A stretch of 64,000 nucleotides of DNA. Source: a bacterium (GTDB taxonomy: Bacteria; Patescibacteriota; UBA1384; VFKW01). This document shows positions 10,428 through 63,084 of this stretch, in pieces. The stretch is from the NCBI GenBank assembly GCA_030647355.1, contig JAUSIS010000006.1, positions 26,221 through 90,220 of the forward strand, given 5' to 3'. A program made the translations under genes and the position numbers. Under the pieces are notes generated by a model, which saw only the letters and a list, made by a program, of their open reading frames with translations, had not been told where the DNA came from and did not search any database. Numbering within the stretch: position 1 is the stretch's first letter; each line of letters starts with the position of its first letter.

Positions 10428-11202
10428 AGGAGCTGGGATCGGGCGCAATCCCATAATTATTAGTACTACTCCTAGGGAGCCGATGGCGTTGTATATTCCG
10501 AAATCTGTCGTGAATATTTTTTTGTTTTTATTAATAGTTACCGGTCTGTTTTACATCTTTTTTGTAAGTGATTATTTTAAGGTAAAGAGGGTAGTCTTTG
10601 AGGGTAGTATAACAAGTGAAGGGCGAGCGGCGGCTGAAAAATCGAGAGGTAAAAATATTTTTTATGTCAATAATTATAGATTGGCAGACGAGGTACGTAA
10701 GGTCTATCCGCAGGCATACTGGGTAAAAATCTATAGGGGATTGCCTGATGTTATCAAAGTCGTTACAGCTGAAAGAACGGTTTCGTTGATCTGGCAGTCT
10801 AACGATCAATATTACTTAGTGGACGATATGGGCATAGCGTTCAGAGCAATCGGAACTCTGGCTAGTAACGAGAAGTGGCAAGCTCTGCCTTTGGTTATTG
10901 ACATAGGCAATTTTAAAGTCGAACTAGGGAAAAGGTTGATTTCTTCACGTTTTATTGATTTTATTTCATATATACATGATAATTTTTCTGAAGTTGAGGG
11001 AAGTAAGCTTGTCAGGATCGAGGTAGCGGAGACGTCTTTCCACCCAGTATTAGTTACGGATTTGGGGTGGAAGGTATTACTCGATAGTAATAGTCCAGCG
11101 AAGGATCAGTTGGACGATTTGAAGCTAATTTTAAATAAGCATAAAGGTGATATTCATGAGTATGTTGATTTGCGAATCGAAGGATGGGGTTATTACAAAT
11201 AA
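10408..11202 (+). CDS. ftsQ: FtsQ/DivIB-like cell division protein (N-terminal TM anchor, POTRA-like domain)
   Basis: Single TM helix followed by a domain with the YQAYWVKIYRGLPDVIKVVTAER pattern. Terminal dcw position after ddl. Start chosen by the RBS GGAGGGAAAAA. Confidence 0.6.
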   Translation: MGWRRNKGAGIGRNPIIISTTPREPMALYIPKSVVNIFLFLLIVTGLFYIFFVSDYFKVKRVVFEGSITSEGRAAAEKSRGKNIFYVNNYRLADEVRKVYPQAYWVKIYRGLPDVIKVVTAERTVSLIWQSNDQYYLVDDMGIAFRAIGTLASNEKWQALPLVIDIGNFKVELGKRLISSRFIDFISYIHDNFSEVEGSKLVRIEVAETSFHPVLVTDLGWKVLLDSNSPAKDQLDDLKLILNKHKGDIHEYVDLRIEGWGYYK

Positions 11203-21306: not shown

Positions 21307-21396
21307 GAAATATCCCTCCAGTTATGTGAATATTATATCACATTGGGCGATATATGTGCGGTTTGGCGACGGATTAAAATTGCTACTTTCTTTTTG

Positions 21397-21470
21397 TCGG
21401 GGCAGGCAGACTTGAACTGCCGACCTCTGGACCCCCAGCCCAGCGCACTAGCCAACTGTGCTATGCCCCG
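21397..21470 (-). tRNA. tRNA-Pro (anticodon GGG)
   Basis: Manual cloverleaf on the minus strand: acceptor CGGGGCA/TGCCCCG, D stem GCAC/GTGC, anticodon stem CTGGG/TCCAG, loop CUGGGGG, T stem GGCAG/CTGCC, T loop TTCAAGT. 74 nt, no encoded CCA. Confidence 0.8.
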
Positions 21471-21482
21471 TTGAGTAAAAGT

Positions 21483-21540
21483 TGAGCGTACTAGCCTCCG
21501 CCTCCGCAGCTGGCGGATGTGCTATGCCCTGCAAGGTTTT
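21483..21540. repeat. Degenerate copy of repeat family F2 (CCGCC-N4-GGCGG hairpin module)
   Basis: CTCCGCCTCCGCAGCTGGCGGATGTGCTATGCCC resembles the inner hairpin and 3' part of F2 copy 61125-61240 and the 41-nt palindromic insert in topA/recR. Confidence 0.45.
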
Positions 21541-33769: not shown

Positions 33770-34110
33770 GCTTTGTCGCTTCGCTCCTCGCAATGACAGA
33801 GAACTGCTGTTCGCAGTGACACGGAAAGTGGAGAAGATTGCCGCGCTTCGCTCGCAATGACAGGAAAGTAAGATTGCCGCGCTACGCTCGCAATGACAGA
33901 AGGGAGATTGCTTCGGACGACACTCGCAATGACAAAGGAAGCTTCTCGCAATGACAAAGGAGAGATTGCTTCGGACGACGCTCGCAATGACACGGAAAGT
34001 GGAGAAGATTGCCGCGCTGCGCTCGTAATGACATAAGCACACTCGCGATGTTCGTCAGAAAGATTGCTTCGTCGCTACGCTCCTCGCAATGACACGGAAA
34101 AAACGCTGGT
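33770..34110. repeat. Cluster of ~7 hairpin repeat units (GATTGC-N12-17-GCAATGACA), the last one a long perfect palindrome
   Basis: Repeated GATTGCCGCGCT(T/A)CGCTCGCAATGACA and GATTGCTTCGGACGAC(A/G)CTCGCAATGACA units separated by 6-12 nt. 34067-34130 forms a ~28-bp inverted repeat. Confidence 0.85.
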
Positions 34111-34148
34111 CATTGCGAGCGAACAGCGAAGCAATCTATAATGGAAAT

Positions 34149-48032: not shown

Positions 48033-48857
48033 ATGAAAAAGAAGGATGAGAAAAAAGTTAAGACAGAGAAGGCGGAGGAAGTGGTTTCATCTCAAGTAGA
48101 AGCCGTTGAAGGAGAAGCTTTAGAAGAGATTAAAAGTGCTCCAGACGAGAATGTTGTGGCAAATGAGGATGCGGTTGAAGGGACTCCGGGTGGTGATGCT
48201 GTAGTAGGCGAGAATGAAACTGAAGGGGTTTCGAATGAGACTGTTGTTGTAAACGAGGATGAGGTTGGAGATATGGTTTCTTCGATGGGAAAATTGGATG
48301 AGAATTTGAAGTCCAAAACGATAAAACAGACTGGTGAGAAGGGGTGGTATGTGATTCACTCATATGCCGGTTATGAGGATCAGGTGGCTGAGAATTTGAA
48401 ACAGAGAATAGAAACTTTGCATATGAAAGATAAGATATTCAATGTTTTAGTTCCAAAAGAAAAGCAGATTGAAATAAAAAATGGCAAGAGGCGAACGGTT
48501 GAGAGAAGGATTTTCCCTGGCTATGTAATGGTGGAAATGATTGTAACAGATGATTCTTGGTATGTGGTCCGCAATACTCCCAATGTGACTGGTTTTATAG
48601 GGATGGGTGTTAGGCCGACGCCAATGCTTCCGGATGAAGTGGATAGAATAATGAAGAGAATGGGAGTTCAGGAATCCAAATACAAGATTGAGGTTGACGT
48701 TGATGATCTGGTTAAAATTGTTGATGGACCGCTTAAGGGATTTGAAGGCAAGGTGACGGAAGTGGATGAAGATAAGGGTAAGGTTAAGGTTTCGGTGAAT
48801 ATGTTTGGTAGGGAAACGCCAGTTAATTTGGATTCATTACAAGTTAAAAAGATATAA
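48033..48857 (+). CDS. nusG: Transcription termination/antitermination factor NusG with ~95-aa acidic N-terminal extension
   Basis: NGN domain (WYVIHSYAGYEDQV) and C-terminal KOW (VKIVDGPLKGFEGKV). N-terminal E/V/N-rich low-complexity region. Confidence 0.85.
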   Translation: MKKKDEKKVKTEKAEEVVSSQVEAVEGEALEEIKSAPDENVVANEDAVEGTPGGDAVVGENETEGVSNETVVVNEDEVGDMVSSMGKLDENLKSKTIKQTGEKGWYVIHSYAGYEDQVAENLKQRIETLHMKDKIFNVLVPKEKQIEIKNGKRRTVERRIFPGYVMVEMIVTDDSWYVVRNTPNVTGFIGMGVRPTPMLPDEVDRIMKRMGVQESKYKIEVDVDDLVKIVDGPLKGFEGKVTEVDEDKGKVKVSVNMFGRETPVNLDSLQVKKI

Positions 48858-48870
48858 GTAATTACGCGGT

Positions 48871-48965
48871 CTTATCCTCTTCGGGGAGCGTTACGCTTCC
48901 TCGGCTTGAGGCCGATGAGCGCTGCACTACGCTTAACTCCCCTTAGAAGACAAGACCGCGTTATA
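48871..48965. repeat. Repeat family F2, copy 1 (structured ~75-nt element)
   Basis: CGCGGTCTT..CTTCGGGGAGCGTTACGCTTCC-[hairpin CTCGGCTTGAGGCCGATGAG]-CGCTGCACTACGCTTAACTCCCC..AAGACCGCG. Paralogues at 54047 and 61125. Confidence 0.8.
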
Positions 48966-48997: not shown

Positions 48998-49423
48998 ATG
49001 GCGAAGAAGATAAAAACAATAGTAAAAGTGCAGGCACCGGCAGGTAAAGCAACTCCAGCGCCTCCGATTGGGCCGGCTTTGGGTCAACATGGTTTGAATA
49101 TCATGGAGTTTGTTAATGCGTTTAATGAAAAGACGCGCGAGATGGGAGATACGGTTGTTCCGGTTGAGATAACTGTTTATGAAGATCGAACATTTGATTT
49201 TATCTGTAAGACTCCGCCGGCTGCTATATTACTTGCCAAGGAGGCAGGGATAACCAAAGGTTCTTCCAACCCCAAGAAAGATAAAGTCGGTAAGGTATCG
49301 AAAGAACAGGTAAGGAAAATTGCTGAATTGAAATTGAAAGATCTGAATGCATATGATGTTGATGAGGCAGAGAAGATAATTCGTGGTACGGCTCGTTCGA
49401 TGGGGATTGAAGTAAAAGATTAA
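48998..49423 (+). CDS. rplK: 50S ribosomal protein L11
   Basis: [38 protein letters not shown] is near-canonical uL11. Confidence 0.9.
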
Positions 49424-49469
49424 GCCGATAAGCAGTAAGAAATAAACTGTTAAGTAATTTTGAATTATC

Positions 49470-49498
49470 AAAAAAAGCGACTAGATGTCGCTTTTTTT
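49470..49498 (+). terminator. Intrinsic terminator after rplK
   Basis: AAAAAAAGCGACTAGATGTCGCTTTTTTTG. Confidence 0.75.
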
Positions 49499-49811
49499 GT
49501 TCCCTCCATTACCTCCTTAACCTCCTTTAGGATTTTACGAGGCCCTAAAATATTTAAATTGTAGTCTCGTGTTAAGGTGTAATAGAGAGAATTATCGTGA
49601 TAAGGACGAAAACTCAGGAGGGGTAGAGTTTTCATACTCTTACCACGATAATTCCCACTACTACAGATAAATTATTAATTTTCAGCTCGATGTACTATTG
49701 TAGCATAAAAACAGGCGTTTGTCAAGGGGGTAAGAGAAAAAATTATGGTATACCACGATTAAATAAGGGAGGGGAATTGATAAATAGCGTTTGGCTTGTT
49801 AAGATTTATTT

Positions 49812-50900
49812 ATGCACAAAGCAGAACTTGAACTAATGTACTTGGCGGCAATAAGCGCGTGCTCGAGATTAGACTCTATAACTATTCAAGAGTTACTGAA
49901 TTTATTTATTAGCCCCATTGATCTCTGGAAAGCGAATGAATCCGAACTACGAAGCAAGGGAGTACCCGATAAAATTGTCCAGAATCTAGTTTGGTGGAAA
50001 AAAGAGTGTGTACCGGAGTGTTTGTGGAGTAGAATTAATGAATTAGGCTTGAAGGTTATTGGCTTCAAAGATACAGATTATCCTCAATTACTTTGCGAAA
50101 TACCGGATTTGCCTATTGTGTTATATGTGAAGGGGGAGCTTGATCCGCAAGATTTATATGTGGCAGTTGTGGGTAATAGGATGATTTCTCAATATGGCAT
50201 AAGAATGACGGAGCGAATTACCCAGACTTTGGTAAATGCAAGAGTGGTGATCGTCTCTGGTTTGGCATTAGGAGTTGATGGGATTGCGCATCGAGTGGCA
50301 GTGCAAAGTAAAGCAAAGACAGTTGCCGTATTGGCAAATGGTTTGGATCAGGTTTATCCGCCATCGCATAGCAATTTGGCTAAGCAGATCCTTGAAAACG
50401 GGGGCGCTTTAGTTAGTGAATATTCTCCCGGGACATTGCCACTGAAGCATCATTTTCTAGAGAGAAACCGGATAATTGCGGGTTTTTCTATGGGTACATT
50501 GATTGTTGAGGCGGGAAAGATATCGGGGGCTTTAAGAACTGCCGGATGTGCTTTGGAATATGGGCGATCGGTTTATGCTGTACCGGGCGATGCGGAGAGA
50601 CCACAGGCGGCGGGGGTGAATAATTTAATTAAGCAGGGTGCGATTCCAGTTACAACGGGAGAAGATATATTGGGCGATCTTAATATTCAAACCGAAGTTA
50701 AAGAGAGGAAGGATTCTGTAAAATTAACTGATCATGAGAAACTGGTTTTAGATGCGCTTAGTAGTGAGCCAGTGCATATCGATCTGTTAGCTCGCGAGAT
50801 TAAATTAGAAATTTCGGTCTTGAGCGTTATATTAATCGGGCTTGAAATGAGGGATCTGGCTAAGAATGTAGGTGGTATGAATTATATAAAAATTGAATGA
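49812..50900 (+). CDS. dprA: DNA processing protein DprA (Smf)
   Basis: Rossmann-like DprA domain (VAVVGNRMISQYG, SGLALGVDGIAHR) and C-terminal winged-helix-like region. Confidence 0.8.
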   Translation: MHKAELELMYLAAISACSRLDSITIQELLNLFISPIDLWKANESELRSKGVPDKIVQNLVWWKKECVPECLWSRINELGLKVIGFKDTDYPQLLCEIPDLPIVLYVKGELDPQDLYVAVVGNRMISQYGIRMTERITQTLVNARVVIVSGLALGVDGIAHRVAVQSKAKTVAVLANGLDQVYPPSHSNLAKQILENGGALVSEYSPGTLPLKHHFLERNRIIAGFSMGTLIVEAGKISGALRTAGCALEYGRSVYAVPGDAERPQAAGVNNLIKQGAIPVTTGEDILGDLNIQTEVKERKDSVKLTDHEKLVLDALSSEPVHIDLLAREIKLEISVLSVILIGLEMRDLAKNVGGMNYIKIE

Positions 50901-50962: not shown

Positions 50963-53248
50963 ATGTCTAAATCCTTGGTTATAGTCGAAAGTCCGGCTAA
51001 AGCAAAGACAATTGAGAAATACTTAGGGAGCGGCTATAAAGTGCTGGCTTCTTTTGGTCATGTCAGGGATCTGCCTAAGAGTAAGTTGGGTGTTGATGTT
51101 AAGAAGAATTTTGAGCCAACATATATTGTGCCAACTAAAGCCAAGAAGGTATTGGCGAGTTTGAAAAGCGAGGCGGAAAAATCGGAAAAAATTTATCTGG
51201 CAACAGACTTTGACCGGGAAGGCGAAGCGATTGCTTGGCATATAATGCAAGCCACCGGCTCGCAAACTCAAAGCTCAATCCGCCAGCTGGCGGACAAAAC
51301 TCAAAAATATGGGAGGGTAACTTTCCATGAGATTACAAAGGAGGCAATTGTGCAAGCGTTTGAGCACCCACGCGAGATTGATATGGATTTAGTGGACGCT
51401 CAACAAGCCCGCAGAGTGCTTGATCGGCTCGTTGGCTATAAATTGAGCCCATTTCTTTGGAGAAAGGTGTATACGGGGCTCTCTGCGGGCAGAGTGCAGT
51501 CTGTAGCAGTGCGTTTGGTGGTAGATAGGGAGAGGGAAATAGAAGCTTTTAAGGTGCGGGAGTATTGGACTATTGAAGCGATTTTTTCCAAGAAACCGGA
51601 CAAGATTAAATTTGGCGCAACTTTAACTAAAATAGACGACAAACCTTTCAAGGAGGTGGATCAGAAGAAATTGGCGGAAGATCTGGTTAAGGATATTGAA
51701 GGGGGCAAATATAGCATTCTAGATATACAGAAAGCTGCTAAGACGAGAAGCCCAGCGCCGCCGTTTTCTACTTCAACATTACAACAGGAAGCAAATAGAA
51801 AGTTGCGTTTTTCAGCTAAGCAAACCATGACTTTAGCCCAGCATCTGTATGAGGGTGTAGACCTTGGAAGCGAGGGGTCTGCCGGATTGATTACGTATAT
51901 GAGAACGGATTCATATAATCTAGCCGAGAGCGCAATTCGTGAAGCTCGTCAGGTAATAGGTAAGGAGTTTGGTAAGGAATATGTGCCGCAGTCATCCAGA
52001 TTATATAAAACAAAAGCAAAGGGTGCTCAAGAAGCACATGAGGCGATTAGGCCTACTTTATTTAGCAGGACTCCGGACAGTGTGAGGAAATTTTTAGATA
52101 GTAGTCATTACAAACTTTATAAATTAATTTGGGAACGGGCGATTGCGTCCCAGATGGCAGATGCCCAAGTTGAAGAGACGGTAGCACAGATTGAGTCAAA
52201 AGGGGCTAGTAAGGTGTATGTCTTTACAGCCAAAGGAGCTATTGTCACTTTTGCCGGATTTTTAAAGGTGCATGAGGAAGGCAGGGATGAGATAGAAGAG
52301 GATGGCCTGTCTTTACTGCCTGATTTGGAGGTAGGAGAATCAGTGCATTTGGAAAATGTCGATGGAAGACAGCATTTTACTCAGCCACCGGGGCGATATA
52401 CGGAAGCTACTTTGGTGAAAGAGTTGGAGAAGAGGGGAATCGGCAGACCGTCAACTTATGCGCCTATTATGAGTACTATTGTTGATCGAGGTTATGTCCA
52501 AAAGTTAGAGGGCAGGTTTCATCCGCAGGATGTGGGACTTGTGGTTACAGATTTACTGACCGAGCATTTCCCGGCTATTGTTGACTATCAGTTTACCGCT
52601 AAAATGGAGGAAGAACTTGATGATATTGCAGAGGGTAAGCTGAAATGGCAGCCGGTGGTCAAAGAATTTTATGAACCATTGGCAAAAACTCTTGATGAAA
52701 AAATGGAGACAGTTGAGAAAAAGGATATAACCGAGGAAAAGACTGATGAAAAATGTCCTGAATGTAAGAAGGATTTGGTTATAAAACTTGGGCGTTTTGG
52801 GAAGTTTTATGCCTGTTCAGGTTACCCAGAATGTGAATATACACGGCCATATCTGGAGAACGAAGAGGGCGAAGCAATGTCGGCAAAAGAGGTTAAGGAG
52901 CTGACTGATGAAAAATGTCCAAAATGCGGGGCTCAGTTAGCGGTAAAACAGGGGAGATTTGGCAAGTTTTTAGGATGCAGTGAATATCCCAAGTGTCACT
53001 TTACTAAACAGATTGGAGCAGGGGAGCCAGTTAAATGTACAGAATGCGCCGGAGAGATAGTTATGAAGCGCACCAGGAGAGGGAAGCCATTTTGGGGGTG
53101 CTCAAACTATCCAAAATGCACACTAGCCTTCTGGAACGAACCTGTTGATAAAAGATGTCCAAAATGCAAGGCGATTATGGTAAAATCCGGGAAGGATAAG
53201 GTTAAATGCAGTAAGTGCGAGTATGAAGAGACTGCAAATAGCAGTTAG
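50963..53248 (+). CDS. topA: DNA topoisomerase I with four C-terminal zinc ribbons
   Basis: TOPRIM (LVIVESPAKAKTI, DFDREGEAIAW), Tyr-containing domain III, four CxxC..CxxC ribbons at the C-terminus. Start at the ATG at 50963 behind AGGAGGA. Carries the 41-nt palindromic insert at 51262-51305 in frame. Confidence 0.9.
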   Translation: MSKSLVIVESPAKAKTIEKYLGSGYKVLASFGHVRDLPKSKLGVDVKKNFEPTYIVPTKAKKVLASLKSEAEKSEKIYLATDFDREGEAIAWHIMQATGSQTQSSIRQLADKTQKYGRVTFHEITKEAIVQAFEHPREIDMDLVDAQQARRVLDRLVGYKLSPFLWRKVYTGLSAGRVQSVAVRLVVDREREIEAFKVREYWTIEAIFSKKPDKIKFGATLTKIDDKPFKEVDQKKLAEDLVKDIEGGKYSILDIQKAAKTRSPAPPFSTSTLQQEANRKLRFSAKQTMTLAQHLYEGVDLGSEGSAGLITYMRTDSYNLAESAIREARQVIGKEFGKEYVPQSSRLYKTKAKGAQEAHEAIRPTLFSRTPDSVRKFLDSSHYKLYKLIWERAIASQMADAQVEETVAQIESKGASKVYVFTAKGAIVTFAGFLKVHEEGRDEIEEDGLSLLPDLEVGESVHLENVDGRQHFTQPPGRYTEATLVKELEKRGIGRPSTYAPIMSTIVDRGYVQKLEGRFHPQDVGLVVTDLLTEHFPAIVDYQFTAKMEEELDDIAEGKLKWQPVVKEFYEPLAKTLDEKMETVEKKDITEEKTDEKCPECKKDLVIKLGRFGKFYACSGYPECEYTRPYLENEEGEAMSAKEVKELTDEKCPKCGAQLAVKQGRFGKFLGCSEYPKCHFTKQIGAGEPVKCTECAGEIVMKRTRRGKPFWGCSNYPKCTLAFWNEPVDKRCPKCKAIMVKSGKDKVKCSKCEYEETANSS

Positions 53249-53255
53249 ATACCCT

Positions 53256-53366
53256 TCTTTTAAGGCACGTGTTCGTCCGCTCCAGCGGCGGACGCCACTC
53301 TCTCTCGACTAGTGACCCGCATCTGCGGGACCAAGCTCACTGCGTCTGCGAGAGGTCTTAAAGAAG
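53256..53366. repeat. Repeat family F1, copy a (structured ~100-nt element)
   Basis: CACGTGTTC-[GTCCGCTCCAGCGGCGGAC]-GCCACTCTCTCTCGAC-[..CCCGCATCTGCGGG..]CCAAGCTCACTGCGTCTGCGAGAGGTC, flanked by the inverted repeats TTCTTTTAAG/CTTAAAGAAG. Confidence 0.8.
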
Positions 53367-53410
53367 AATATCTAACTGCTAATAAGGTGAAAAAAGAAGG
53401 AAGAGAAAAG

Positions 53411-54046
53411 ATGGCGGGGAGTATTCCTAAATCAGTACGAGATTTAATTGAAGAATTTGGTAAGCTGCCTGGGATAGGTCCAAAAACAGCTAGCCGGCTA
53501 ACTTTCTATTTATTAACAAAACCTGAGGAGGACGTGGAACGGTTGGCGAAATCGGTTGACGGTCTTAAGAAGAATCTGATTATTTGCTCTGAATGTTATA
53601 ATATCGCCGAAAGTGATCCATGCTCTATTTGTGGCGATCAAGCAAGAGAGAAAGAAAAGGTATGCGTAGTAGAGGAACCCTTGGATGTAGTGGCGATAGA
53701 GAAAACGGGGTTTGATGGCAGATATCATGTTTTGGGCGGGGTGATCTCTCCGATAAACGGAATTGGTCCGGAGAACCTTCGAATGGCAGAATTATTCAAT
53801 CGTATAAAAGGCAAGGGTGTGAAAGAGGTTATTTTGGCGACCGATCCTTCCTTAGAAGGTGAGGCCACCGCTATGTATATAAGCAACTATGTTGCTAAAT
53901 TCAAATCTCAATCCGCCAGCTGGCGGACAAATCTCAAAAATTTAAAAGTTACTAGAATTGCCCGCGGTTTACCTGTGGGAGGGGATTTGGAATATGCAGA
54001 TGAAATGACTTTGACGAGGGCATTGGAGGGAAGGAAAGAGTACTGA
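53411..54046 (+). CDS. recR: Recombination protein RecR
   Basis: HhH (LPGIGPKTASRL), C4 zinc finger (CSECYN..CSIC), Toprim domain, C-terminal GLPVGGDLEYAD. The annotated ORF start at 53312 only translates the F1 repeat; the Met at 53411 is the real start. Carries the second copy of the 41-nt insert (53903-53946). Confidence 0.85.
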   Translation: MAGSIPKSVRDLIEEFGKLPGIGPKTASRLTFYLLTKPEEDVERLAKSVDGLKKNLIICSECYNIAESDPCSICGDQAREKEKVCVVEEPLDVVAIEKTGFDGRYHVLGGVISPINGIGPENLRMAELFNRIKGKGVKEVILATDPSLEGEATAMYISNYVAKFKSQSASWRTNLKNLKVTRIARGLPVGGDLEYADEMTLTRALEGRKEY

Positions 54047-54150
54047 TTATGGGGGGAACATTTATTCGGAGAGCGTTTCGCTTCCCGATACAGTTGTGTC
54101 GGGAGCACTGCACTTCGCTTAACTCTCCTCATAAAAATTCCCCTCGTTAT
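54047..54150. repeat. Repeat family F2, copy 2
   Basis: GGGGGGAA..TTCGGAGAGCGTTTCGCTTCC-[CGATACAGTTGTGTCGGG]-AGCACTGCACTTCGCTTAACTCTCC..TTCCCCTC. Confidence 0.8.
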
Positions 54151-54298
54151 ACTGGAGGTGAAAGTCGGTCTGCGAAAGATAACTTACTTTTAATCAGAGA
54201 TAAGAGTTGTGAACCAGGGTAATTAAGTAGAAGAGGATTGACATATTTTGAGATAATAAGAGATAATCTGTATAATAGAAAAAATATGGAGGAGAATA

Positions 54299-54508
54299 AT
54301 GAATGAGATTCCAGTATTTTATTGTCTAGAGTGTGGATATGTTGGAAATGCTCCGGGAATATGTCCTCAATGCAGTGCGACATTAGTAGCTGATGATATG
54401 AATTTGCCCAATGAAAAAGAAGAGGATGGCAAGTATGATGAGGCTGTATTAGAAGATGAGGAAGAGGATGATGAGTTGCCGGAAGATAAGTTTGAGGATG
54501 AAGAGTAG
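54299..54508 (+). CDS. Small zinc-ribbon protein with a poly-acidic C-terminal tail
   Basis: CLECGY..CPQC ribbon followed by EEDGKYDEAVLEDEEEDDELPEDKFEDEE. RBS GGAGGAGAATA. Confidence 0.5.
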   Translation: MNEIPVFYCLECGYVGNAPGICPQCSATLVADDMNLPNEKEEDGKYDEAVLEDEEEDDELPEDKFEDEE

Positions 54509-54516
54509 GTTAGGTA

Positions 54517-54637
54517 GGCTGTTTGTCATCATGACACGCGTTCATCCGTTCCAGCGACGGGATGCCGCTCTATCTCGGCAGTTGACCCTTCGGAACCAAG
54601 CTCAACTGCCTCCGATAGGTCACTATGACAAACAGCC
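54517..54637. repeat. Repeat family F1, copy b, flanked by the 13-bp inverted repeat GGCTGTTTGTCAT/ATGACAAACAGCC
   Basis: CACGCGTTC-[ATCCGTTCCAGCGACGGGAT]-GCCGCTCTATCTCGGC-[..]CCAAGCTCAACTGCCTCCGATAGGTC. Confidence 0.8.
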
Positions 54638-54717
54638 TTCCCAAAGATGGAGAAGTAGCATTTTGGTCTGCGAGAGACTTTTTAGTCTGACAAGTCATTT
54701 CTTAGAGAGAAGAGGCA

Positions 54718-58513: not shown

Positions 58514-58811
58514 CAACAACTAGCCCAGCTTCGGCTGAGGCGGTGAAGGGGAGGAGGTCTTAATTCCTCCCCTTCACACTGACTTTCTTGAAGATGAATT
58601 TGGTTAATTCTATATAGGATTAACGAAATGCATCTTTTAGAATCATCTAGGAGATGAGAGTGGGTCTATCGTCAAATACCATTTTGGCTGCAAATTGACA
58701 TTACGGTCTGCAAATTCACAAAAGCTCCTTAGCTTATCTACTATTGATAAACTTCGTCCCTTTTGCAAATTTTCGACTGCGTACTGAACAATTTTCGCTT
58801 CAAAAGCGTAT

Positions 58812-59483
58812 TTGACGATAGACCCAAGTAATATAACTGGAGGTTATATGACCAAACTACATTATGGGGGGATTGCCCTAGGTCTGGTGCTAGCTTTGTC
58901 CGTGGCAAACGTGGCATTAGCGAGCACGTCTTCGACCAGCTCTACTTCTGCATCAGGTGGGTCGAGCGCAGTAGTGGTCTCCGGCAATAGTGCCGGTGCG
59001 ACCTCGGAGCATAGTGAAACTTCTGGTACAAGCGGTACCAGCGGAAGCGGTACTTCAACTACCACTTCCAACACTCCTCCCAGCCAGCCTAGTTCGGGTG
59101 GAACAAGTTCAACTTCTTCTACCAGTGCATCTGGCGGATCGAGTGCTGCGGTAGTATCTGGTAATGGTGCTGCTGCTACGTCAGAACATTCCGAGACTTC
59201 TGGATCAAGCGGATCCAGTTCAGGTAGTTCTTCGAGTTCTACTCCTAGCTCTACCTCGAGTACTTCGTCTTCGGGTGGTTCTAGCGCAGCTGTCGCTACT
59301 TCTACTCCTAAAACTACGCCCACAAAAACCGTAGTTACAACTACCGAAACGGCTTCTGGAACATTGCCTCAAGCCGGTGCTTCAGTAGCATTCCCTGCAT
59401 TACTCGCTGTTCTAAGCGGTGCGGCAGGTATCTATTGGAAGCAAAAAGGAGCTGGTGGATTTATCCTAAATCCTAAGTTCTAA
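58812..59483 (+). CDS. Ser/Thr/Gly-rich cell-surface protein with a C-terminal sortase-type sorting signal (LPQAG + TM + KQKG)
   Basis: Signal peptide. Two internal ~55-aa repeats (SSTSSTSASGGSSA(V/A)VVSGN..ATSEHSETSG). C-terminus GTLPQAGASVAFPALLAVLSGAAGIYWKQKG. Confidence 0.55.
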   Translation: MTIDPSNITGGYMTKLHYGGIALGLVLALSVANVALASTSSTSSTSASGGSSAVVVSGNSAGATSEHSETSGTSGTSGSGTSTTTSNTPPSQPSSGGTSSTSSTSASGGSSAAVVSGNGAAATSEHSETSGSSGSSSGSSSSSTPSSTSSTSSSGGSSAAVATSTPKTTPTKTVVTTTETASGTLPQAGASVAFPALLAVLSGAAGIYWKQKGAGGFILNPKF

Positions 59484-61124: not shown

Positions 61125-61240
61125 CTCGGCGATGAGGGTATAAGCTATTCGGGAAGCGTTTCTCCGCCATCCGCCAATCGGCGGAGGCGGATGCACTACG
61201 CTTAACTTCCCTCATAGCACATACCCTCATCTTAATTGCT
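61125..61240. repeat. Repeat family F2, copy 3, closed by the perfect 11-bp helix GATGAGGGTAT/ATACCCTCATC
   Basis: ..TTCGGGAAGCGTTTCTCCGCCATCCGCCAATCGGCGGAGGCGGATGCACTACGCTTAACTTCCCTCATAGCAC.. Confidence 0.8.
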
Positions 61241-61987: not shown

Positions 61988-62866
61988 ATGCCAAAGAAGA
62001 AACAGGTTAAAGAGGAGCAGGACAATCCTGTCGTAGAAGTTGAAGAAGAAGCATTAGTTGATTCGGAAGAGGACAGAGAAGAAGAGAAAAACTTGGGAAT
62101 AGATGACACTGACGAAAATTTACAGGAGGAGACTCAAATAAAAAAAGTAGTAGGGGATGTAGCGGGACTACCTTCTGAGGTGGCTGCTATTAATACTGAT
62201 AATGAGACTGCCCGAGAGGCAACTAAAAAAGTTCAAGGGACAACGAATAAAAATAAATCGAGAAGCAAAAGATACATTACCGCTGTTAGTAAGGTTGATA
62301 AAAATAAGAAATACACGATTGACGAAGCTATAGAATTAGCAAAAGAAACTTCGAGTACGAAGTTTGAAGGATCGGTTGAGTTGCATGTAAAACTATCCGA
62401 GAAAAAAAGCAAGAAAAAAGGAACTGATGAATTGGCTCGAGGGATTTTGCATCTACCGCATGGAATGGGGAAAGAGCTGAAAGTTATTGTCTTAGACGAA
62501 AACAAGATCGAAGAAATTGCTAAAACAAAGAAAGTTGATTTTGATGTGGCGATAGCTACTCCCGCTTTGATGCCTAAAATGGGTAAGATCGCCAAGATTT
62601 TAGGTCCAAAAGGAAAAATGCCAAATCCAAAGACCGGGACTGTGAGTGATGATCCCGAGAAAGTAAAAGAAGAAATTAAGAATGGTAAGGTAGAATATAA
62701 GGTAGATGCTAATAATGTTGTTCACCAGATGATCGGAAAGACCAGTTGGGATAGTATAAAACTCAAAGAGAATTTTCAAGTAGTGATGCAGGCGTTGCCT
62801 AAAAATAGAGTGCAATCTGTCGCTCTTTCGACGACGATGGGACCGGGGATTAAAGTAGAGTACTAA
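61988..62866 (+). CDS. rplA: 50S ribosomal protein L1 with ~90-aa acidic/lysine-rich N-terminal extension
   Basis: From residue ~95: KRYITAVSKVDKNKKYTIDEAIELAKE..FEGSVELHVKL..PHG...KVIV is the uL1 core. The N-terminus is EEE/KK low complexity. Confidence 0.8.
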   Translation: MPKKKQVKEEQDNPVVEVEEEALVDSEEDREEEKNLGIDDTDENLQEETQIKKVVGDVAGLPSEVAAINTDNETAREATKKVQGTTNKNKSRSKRYITAVSKVDKNKKYTIDEAIELAKETSSTKFEGSVELHVKLSEKKSKKKGTDELARGILHLPHGMGKELKVIVLDENKIEEIAKTKKVDFDVAIATPALMPKMGKIAKILGPKGKMPNPKTGTVSDDPEKVKEEIKNGKVEYKVDANNVVHQMIGKTSWDSIKLKENFQVVMQALPKNRVQSVALSTTMGPGIKVEY

Positions 62867-62867
62867 T

Positions 62868-63000
62868 TCAAGAGTATATCTTTCAAAGACACGCGTTCGT
62901 CCGCTCCTGCGGCGGATGCCGCTCGCCCTCGGATTCCTTTCGCCTTCGGCGAACCAAGCAAGAAATCCTGCGAGAGGTCTTCTCAAAACATACTCTTGAA
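62868..63000. repeat. Repeat family F1, copy d, flanked by the inverted repeat TTCAAGAGTAT/ATACTCTTGAA
   Basis: ACACGCGTTC-[GTCCGCTCCTGCGGCGGAT]-GCCGCTCGCCCTCGGA-[TTCCTTTCGCCTTCGGCGAA]-CCAAGCAAGAAATCCTGCGAGAGGTC. Confidence 0.8.
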
Positions 63001-63084
63001 TTCAAAGAGAGAGTGGAAAAGGGTAACAAAAAAATAGTTTGTAGGTACTTTAAGTAGTAGTTGGTTTTTCCATTAGAGTTTTTG

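Follow-up and report, generated by a model that had tools for sequence, protein, structure and literature searches.

Is a hairpin with compensatory base changes that recurs behind several genes a functional RNA, or is it mobile DNA? The question is raised by a 64-kb stretch of contig JAUSIS010000006.1 from a member of the Patescibacteria (the window, by which we mean the whole stretch that was analysed), in which nusG, recR and ybaB are each followed by a copy of a structured element, here called F2. Genomes of the candidate phyla radiation (CPR)/Patescibacteria are tiny, and as a rule they are said to contain few repeats and little mobile DNA. In our assessment, F2 is probably a new, non-autonomous family of interspersed palindromic repeats found in Patescibacteria, similar to rickettsial palindromic elements (RPEs) and repetitive extragenic palindromes (REPs), and selfish or at least mobile DNA. 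Genome comparisons showed it to be dispersed, gained or lost between close relatives, present in both orientations, and able to lie in frame within a coding sequence. We favor this reading because F2 occurs in unrelated contexts, at sites that are filled in some genomes and empty in others, once in antisense within tsaD, and with sharp boundaries of its core. The reading is further based on a truncated, inverted copy next to a tRNA-Pro gene, a tandem cluster behind valS, the lack of a strand-specific RNA signature, a second family of identical design, small palindromes in topA and recR, and the lack of a match in Rfam.

The three copies had been placed 3' of nusG, recR and ybaB in an initial annotation of the window, and they were found exactly there (Table 1). 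Pfam confirmed NusG, RecR and YbaB upstream of the copies, and identified L11 and Pth downstream. A covariance model recognised the copies with 70-83 bits (E 1e-20 to 1e-24), and their folding z-scores were -6.2 to -7.9 relative to shuffled sequences. The hairpins begin 6, 4 and 6 nt past the stop codon in copies 1, 2 and 3, respectively. Their outermost layer is a copy-specific outer helix of 8-11 bp, in agreement with the initial annotation, beneath which lies another short helix. Between these outer helices and the 6-bp helix P1 there is a 2x2 internal loop (UC/UY). P1 carries the compensatory changes that had been pointed out (GGGGAG/CTCCCC, GGAGAG/CTCTCC and GGGAAG/CTTCCC). Inside P1 lie a conserved 5' strand (CGTTWC), a variable hairpin (P2), and a conserved 3' strand (TGCACTWCGCTTAA). 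The pattern common to the window copies is AGCGTTWC, the variable hairpin and TGCACTWCGCTTAACT, closed by P1, and the window contains three exact instances of the 15-mer GCACTNCGCTTAACT, each on the plus strand. Overall, the F2 unit measures about 70-130 bp and consists of an asymmetric conserved core (GAG-CGTTWC ... TGCACTWCGCTT(A/T)(A/T)AC-TC), P1, the variable P2, and copy-specific self-complementary arms. No fourth full copy was found in the 64-kb window with the covariance model run with filters off. Rfam 15 at gathering score detected only five tRNAs in the whole window and left F2 unmatched. At E values up to 10, around copy 1 and in the region 53200-54700, which includes copy 2, Rfam returned only chance matches of the snoRNA/miRNA type.

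Table 1. Coordinates of F2 copies, their parts and other features; positions refer to the window unless a contig is named.
Feature	Position	Strand	Context or detail	Basis
F2 copy 1, hairpin	48864-48961	+	nusG (stop ends 48857) to rplK (start 48998)	covariance model, 82.5 bits
copy 1, outer helix	~48864-48874/48951-48961
copy 1, P1	48883-48888 with 48937-48942		GGGGAG with CTCCCC
copy 1, 5' core	48889-48894		CGTTAC
copy 1, P2	~48895-48922
copy 1, 3' core	48923-48936		TGCACTACGCTTAA
F2 copy 2, hairpin	54051-54145	+	4 nt past recR stop (54046)	covariance model, 79.5 bits
copy 2, outer helix	54051-54058/54138-54145		GGGGGGAA/TTCCCCTC
copy 2, core match	54072-54124
copy 2, P1	54068-54073 with 54123-54128		GGAGAG with CTCTCC
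F2 copy 3, hairpin	61131-61231	+	ybaB (stop ends 61124) to pth (start 61270)	covariance model, 69.6 bits
copy 3, outer helix			GATGAGGGTAT/ATACCCTCATC
copy 3, core match	61155-61207
copy 3, P1	61151-61156 with 61206-61211		GGGAAG with CTTCCC
copy 3, P2	61163-61191		doubled CCGCC/GGCGG palindrome
Truncated F2	21479-21519	-	adjoins tRNA-Pro (21396-21470, minus), directly upstream	local alignment to 61168-61208
12-nt direct repeat TGTGCTATGCCC	21458-21469 and 21517-21528		first repeat is the tRNA 5' end; the two bracket the truncated F2
tsaD F2 copy	L006 3956-4042	-	tsaD on plus; 87 nt, 29 codons, open frame
14-nt palindrome CCGCCAGCTGGCGG	51280-51293		topA, coding
14-nt palindrome CCGCCAGCTGGCGG	53913-53926		recR, coding
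Related palindrome CCGCCAATCGGCGG	61171-61184		tip of copy 3 P2
Second palindromic family	54510-54644, 62865-63002, 53239-53381	+		inverted-repeat scan
Canonical terminator	49471-49500		past rplK; bidirectional-looking
Inverted repeats, long and stable	58661-58826, 33963-34137		26-29-nt arms, 114-117 nt between
Inverted repeat	49578-49665		27-nt arms, 34 nt between; rplK-dprA spacer
Palindrome	58585-58642		58 nt, arms overlapping
Strong promoter-like site	54238-54276		for the gene downstream of copy 2

The pairing was examined in an alignment of 14 copies. Over P1, the helix next to it on the outside and two pairs of the core, 91% of the cells pair, 10 of the 14 pairs show double changes, and none of 500 shuffles attained the observed values; slid registers pair at 40-60% only. 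RNAalifold independently gave the same two helices. The agreement between pairing, double changes, shuffle test and RNAalifold indicates that the F2 hairpin is real and maintained. The covariation holds with the added copies, which come from independent assemblies. Duplication by misassembly, which the initial annotation had considered, is excluded by the differences of the copies in P2 and arms and by the presence of the family in unrelated assemblies.

The compensatory changes do not, by themselves, show a functional RNA. Nearly all changes in the helices lead from one Watson-Crick pair to another, with 45 double changes versus 2 one-sided (G-C to G-U) cells. Counted over the whole hairpins, G·U pairs number 31 in the antisense fold against 25 in the sense fold, and in 7 of 12 copies the antisense fold has a stability advantage of at least 4 kcal/mol. 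This strand pattern fits a mobile DNA palindrome that keeps its arms complementary; an additional effect at the RNA level in sense orientation is possible. Within the core, which is invariant, no covariation was found, so that no tertiary fold can be supported. Of the earlier description, the structured element with compensatory changes stands, but these changes are no proof of a functional RNA in view of presence and absence among relatives, the antisense copies, the truncated inverted fragment next to tRNA-Pro and the symmetric G·U content.

Outside the window, a composite core pattern was scanned over the GTDB species genomes and the JGI metagenomes, neither of which contains the source genome of the window. 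The pattern demanded an exact core, which inflates the apparent invariance of the core and biases the census. The scan identified members in L001 (a Saccharibacteria metagenome-assembled genome, with the same sequence as L005), L004, L006, L007, L009, L011 and L013. Matches in L002 and in L003/L008/L010/L012/L014 lack P1, are due to chance or coding sequence, and were dropped. With a covariance model from ten F2 copies, diverged members came to light as well: one after rplK in L017/L018, two in L023, one in L022, and a second one in L006. Some diverged copies change the 3' core, with GCAGA in place of CGCTTAA in L017 and TTTT in place of TTAA in L006b/L023. Altogether, about 11 copies lie beyond the window in other Patescibacteria assemblies, bringing the census to about 15.

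The genes that precede the outside copies are mutM, the gene for the N-terminal subunit of transketolase, valS, a VTT-domain gene, an NTP-transferase gene, an R3H-domain gene, and rplK. The genes hosting F2 have nothing in common and show no metabolic theme, and a riboswitch was rejected for the lack of a shared theme. A looser core pattern run over viral contigs gave 0 matches, and a phage origin was dropped on this basis. When the sense peptide of copy 2 was compared with 1.84 billion representatives by phmmer, only P0247 was matched, an unrelated protein with a 9-fold tandem repeat. The F2 family was previously undescribed; in the searchable library, no specific report came up either on the core sequence or on palindromic repeats of Patescibacteria or Saccharibacteria. 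As a minor observation, the F2 copy behind the R3H-domain (Jag-like) gene in L013 is followed by a gene for a ThaI-type restriction endonuclease (268-900, minus).

Filled and empty sites were compared in six relatives that share the L21-secE-nusG-rplK(-dprA-topA-recR) synteny with the window. None of the six (L015, L016, L017/L018, L019 and L020) carries F2 between nusG and rplK, where the spacer measures 44 nt in L015, the closest relative, 84 nt in L016, 185 nt in L017/L018, 21 nt in L019 and 48 nt in L020. Without the entire hairpin, the window spacer would measure about 42 nt, similar to that of L015 (44 nt). Downstream of recR, the spacer is 14 nt in L017, and 215 nt and free of F2 in L016. 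The initial annotation had argued that F2 is not specific for rplK, and both the many unrelated host genes and the six syntenic relatives without F2 bear this out; a leader of rplK (L11 operon) was rejected because the synteny-matched relatives lack the element. Some of the empty spacers contain other structures. L016 has only a 5-bp hairpin (GCGAC GAA GTCGC) 1 nt past the nusG stop, and L017 has in its spacer (10640-10824) a different long GC-rich hairpin (outer arms GCCTCTTGGC/GCCAAGAGTC) that starts 6 nt past it. As far as these spacers go, the position after the stop codon seems to attract hairpins of varied content. The gene rplA (L1) is not next to rplK in the window (49423-49812), L016 or L017; dprA-topA-recR follow after a spacer of 390-670 nt.

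A further filled site lies within a gene. The tsaD gene of L006 contains an F2 copy in antisense that keeps the frame open (Table 1), and the L006 protein retains a full TsaD Pfam match. In comparison with solved TsaD structures, the stretch of residues 293-325 has only 10 counterparts in the enzyme from Salmonella. The insert is shared by P0121. In P0123, which is encoded in L022, has 340 amino acids and is 92% identical, LREAAEPSTFFPEP stands where L006 has LRKEAIQSFGGSKSVVQPEKNKRSEFFPACNAPDKILNCFFPEP, a difference of 30 amino acids. The L022 contig is syntenic with L006 and retains an identical F2 copy 3' of valS; thus, between these two genomes, the tsaD copy alone differs. P0122 (L023) has retained the left half of this tsaD copy; next to it comes a different insert (GHPQLLRGRSEEP...), which is found at the same position in other orthologues. 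A second insertion hot spot with 40-70-aa inserts is found near residue 124 of TsaD. Inserted DNA of several kinds is thus lengthening these proteins. The closely related TsaD orthologues P0122 (L023 10001-11293), P0124-P0127 and P0132 range from 339 to 431 aa due to in-frame inserts at residues ~124 and ~293. A recurrent TsaD insert, 'GHPQLLRGRSEEPR.D.RDERPE', is unrelated to F2.

The copies of L006 and L023 also bear on the boundaries of the unit. In L006b, L023a and L023b, the cores are 95-98% identical over 65 nt including P2, and identity falls to 35-74% in the arms just outside GAG...CTC. So abrupt a boundary looks like the edge of an inserted unit, unlike the gradual decay that would be expected under selection for a fold. 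Downstream of valS, L023 has two F2 copies about 400 nt apart, and L006 and L023 share relic right arms in different order. In sequence terms, this valS-3' cluster resembles a recombining cluster.

The initial annotation had also listed a degenerate copy next to tRNA-Pro. This copy is real, but it lies on the minus strand, at slightly different coordinates (Table 1), and is truncated. It consists of the 3' arm of a P2 of the copy-3 type and the 3' core, and lacks the 5' half and P1. Its alignment with the 3' half of copy 3 scored 45, the best of all 90-nt windows, and was not equalled in 500 shuffles; the covariance model did not detect the fragment. The 12-nt direct repeat that brackets it includes the 5' end of the tRNA, and CATAGCACA is present also in the 3' arm of copy 3. 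The arrangement suggests a microhomology-mediated rearrangement.

Palindromes related to the P2 tip of copy 3 were found in coding sequence as well. The CCGCC-N4-GGCGG module that had been reported for topA, recR and copy 3 is indeed present at all three places (Table 1), as an exact 14-nt palindrome in the two genes and in a related version in P2 of copy 3. As had been proposed, the module in topA and recR coincides with extra residues, here seen relative to two orthologues, an IRQLAD segment in TopA and SASW in RecR. A larger apparent insert in RecR was rejected: most of the difference in length comes from a mis-called start at a GTG (33 aa), and just 4 aa are truly inserted. The recR reading frame as called starts at a GTG 33 codons before the Met that aligns with orthologues, and translation probably begins near 53411; the additional segment (53312-53410) overlaps a hairpin of a second palindromic family (53239-53381).

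Members of this second family lie in the topA-recR gap, in the gap between a DUF7129 gene and cysS, and behind a gene that ends at 62866. They share a conserved branched core of about 90 nt (GACACGCGTTCGTCCGCTCCAGCGGCGGATGCCGCTC...CTCG-[hairpin]-ACCAAGC...CGAGAGGTC) set in copy-specific arms of 22-28 nt, and Rfam left them unmatched. At the position of the copy at 54510-54644, L017 has a spacer of 1 nt. The window genome is colonised by nested palindromes of several sizes.

A number of findings weigh against F2 as mobile DNA. Among the 13 intergenic copies, 12 point in the same direction as the gene upstream, and the start of 9-10 lies 0-10 nt past its stop codon, even where ample spacer is free downstream (copy 2, L001 and L013). 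Random insertion of a DNA element would not give this bias, which needs either selection on the transcript or insertion coupled to the strand; the two are inseparable here because gene and replication direction are probably correlated. The conserved nucleotides are unpaired and asymmetric, as in RNAs that bind proteins or ligands. F2 lacks both conserved terminal inverted repeats and a consistent target-site duplication, and no transposase was identified (open reading frames were not screened systematically), so that we infer the mode of mobility in its entirety. The window copies, with pairwise identities of 83-95% in the core, 42-62% in P2 and 47-70% in the arms, are to be regarded as old and give no sign of a recent burst, given that P2 and the arms have strongly diverged and the core has not. 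Finally, the census of about 15 copies is small and biased toward exact cores.

Could F2 then be primarily a cis-acting RNA module of the 3' untranslated region (3'-UTR), kept to tune expression of the neighboring genes? Such a module might stall or slow terminating ribosomes, act as a barrier to 3' exonucleases or serve as a substrate of RNase III, and its asymmetric loop might bind a common protein. The co-orientation and the stop-proximal starts speak for it, as do a conserved unpaired core flanked by covarying helices, the very stable folds (z -6 to -8), and the precedent of stop-proximal stalling at E. coli REPs (PMC12306157). On the other hand, close relatives lack F2 at the same sites, copies lie in antisense in tsaD and also in L009, where the copy is antisense to both neighbors (hpf and secA), and the host genes have no common function. 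No excess of G·U pairs marks the sense strand, which often has the less stable of the two folds. Nor do the window copies look like terminators: they lack a T-run (the tails behind copies 1-3 read TTATATAAA, GTTATACTG and TTAATTGCT) and were absent from a terminator scan, and an intrinsic terminator was rejected for them. Since a canonical terminator, AAAAAAAGCGAC-TAGAT-GTCGCTTTTTTT (A-run, GCGAC stem, T-run), exists past rplK, F2 is not the normal intrinsic terminator of this genome; T-run tails do occur at some outside copies (L006a, L017 and L023a/b). Extension of the proteins by stop-codon read-through was also rejected, as the nusG, recR and ybaB frames enter F2 in three registers and would yield no conserved read-through peptide. 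On balance, we regard a primary role as a 3'-UTR module as rather unlikely; it overlaps in part with the mobile palindrome that we favor, alongside which a REP-like influence on termination or transcript ends is plausible.

A new catalytic or ligand-binding RNA (a self-cleaving ribozyme, an aptamer or a processed small RNA, with the outer helix as a processing stem) appears improbable. Hammerhead and twister ribozymes occur in many copies, and F2, too, is multi-copy and found in odd gene contexts. The anatomy would suit such an RNA, in that an asymmetric internal loop with some 22 conserved nucleotides is enclosed by helices that are free to vary yet keep pairing, and the lack of an Rfam match would make it a new one. 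There is, however, no positive evidence of activity, the tsaD copy is transcribed in antisense, and the diverged copies in L017 and L006b/L023 change the 3' core. An invariant core that supports no tertiary fold and gene contexts without a metabolic theme argue in the same direction, the latter against a riboswitch. It can practically be dismissed that the nusG-rplK copy is an L11-operon leader and that the other copies are chance look-alikes or assembly artefacts. The position of copy 1 directly upstream of rplK is the only point in its favor; six syntenic relatives lack F2 there, the element is also present behind recR, ybaB and many unrelated genes, and rplA does not follow rplK here. An E value of ~1e-20 and the recurrence in independent assemblies exclude chance and misassembly.

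If F2 is mobile DNA, which known elements does it resemble? RPEs (Ogata et al., 2000) are listed and discussed in PMC3184786. They are non-coding palindromes of about 100-150 bp in a small, reduced genome, lie between genes as well as in frame within genes, are patchily distributed between related genomes, and have no known transposase or mechanism. F2 likewise occurs between genes and in frame without disrupting the gene, and is present or absent at orthologous sites. The hosts differ, being Alphaproteobacteria for RPEs and Patescibacteria for F2, so that homology is unlikely and the likeness is one of kind, not of family. F2, moreover, lies overwhelmingly just past stop codons and in gene orientation. 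Whereas similarity along the element is what defines RPE families, near-identical F2 cores carry unrelated arms.

REP, BIME and REPIN elements are extragenic 3'-UTR hairpins, often within 15 nt of the stop codon, that affect translation and the fate of the mRNA (PMC2817692, PMC3733652, PMC12306157). F2 shares this extragenic, stop-proximal placement, and like these elements it occurs in singletons and clusters and keeps the palindrome while the sequence drifts. In E. coli, REPs less than 16 nt from a stop codon stall ribosomes and reduce translation (PMC12306157); by analogy, the F2 hairpins stand in the position of such ribosome-stalling REPs. REPs are 20-40 bp long with GTAG or CGTC at one end, whereas F2 measures 70-130 bp and has a low copy number here. 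A REP with a GTAG head was therefore rejected on size and head: GTAG appears in antisense only if W is A, and the sequence is otherwise GAAG. The antisense core reads GCGTAGTG only where W is A, and GCGAAGTG or GCGGAGTG in other copies.

Bacterial MITEs (miniature transposable elements with inverted repeats) such as Correia/CREE, ERIC and Nezha are also non-autonomous, about 100-200 bp long, intergenic and sometimes within reading frames, and they form long RNA hairpins (PMC3184786, PMC10969869). They differ in having conserved terminal inverted repeats and target-site duplications, while F2 is least conserved at its termini and most in its center. Flanking direct repeats of 3-4 nt were seen by eye at some copies, such as copy 2 (TTAT), L011 (TTAC) and L009 (CGCT), and were missing at others, the 12-nt repeat being confined to the truncated tRNA-Pro copy; with unconserved termini and inconsistent target duplication a MITE was rejected. 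F2 is also like the mobile repeats that lie downstream of genes with a fold resembling a 3'-end hairpin; there is no sequence relationship to them, and the window copies lack the T-run. Integron attC sites share imperfect palindromes 3' of genes, conservation of structure over sequence, unpaired bases and a variable central hairpin, and GCTTAAC fits RYYYAAC. In F2, however, the order of the GTT/AAC boxes is reversed, and the boxes are internal and do not pair with each other. The hosts are core housekeeping genes, with no cassettes and no integrase context. From a reading of the sequence, box order and box positions misfit, and an attC site was rejected.

We propose that F2 spreads as a mobile palindrome by way of a hairpin intermediate of single-stranded DNA, with the conserved core recognised by an enzyme. 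Recognition is likely to involve the asymmetric, conserved core; the arms would be either local or fast-evolving. Complementarity of the arms could arise from arm-to-arm template switching, or from the core landing in the tips of existing hairpins. Copies would survive chiefly just past stop codons and in gene orientation, where they may be tolerated, and the stop-proximal hairpin in the transcript might stall terminating ribosomes or protect or process the 3' end, in a REP-like manner. A stronger version, to which we assign a small probability, is that the conserved 65-70-nt core is itself the true mobile unit, which either integrates into hairpin tips or makes inverted flanks. It would explain how near-identical cores come to lie within unrelated, perfectly complementary arms, why a second family has the same design and palindromes are nested in bigger ones, and why stop-proximal 3' hairpins are preferred. 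The strand bias could in that case come from replication or transcription, and a built-in effect on translation termination would be possible.

The F2 palindromes and at least one sister family colonise the first nucleotides past the stop codons of core genes (nusG, recR, ybaB, valS and rplK). F2 can add 30 residues to the essential TsaD, which explains some of the insertions and length variation in CPR proteins, and it offers a marker for variation at the strain level. The element also cautions annotators and those who search for RNA motifs that covariation in a hairpin need not mean a functional RNA. If the stop-proximal placement is functional, it would extend REP-type ribosome stalling or 3'-UTR control to a distant, uncultivated radiation; if the core does target hairpin tips, the mechanism would be new and would define a hairpin-loop-targeting class of CPR mobile elements.

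As to the genes around copy 1, NusG of the window (48033-48857) has 274 aa with an N-terminal extension of ~70-100 residues, the Pfam NusG domain beginning at residue 104. In relatives, the protein has 205-274 aa, and the extension is poorly conserved. By its NusG homologues, the organism of the window belongs to the Patescibacteria, and the closest of the named homologues are annotated as Candidatus Berkelbacteria.

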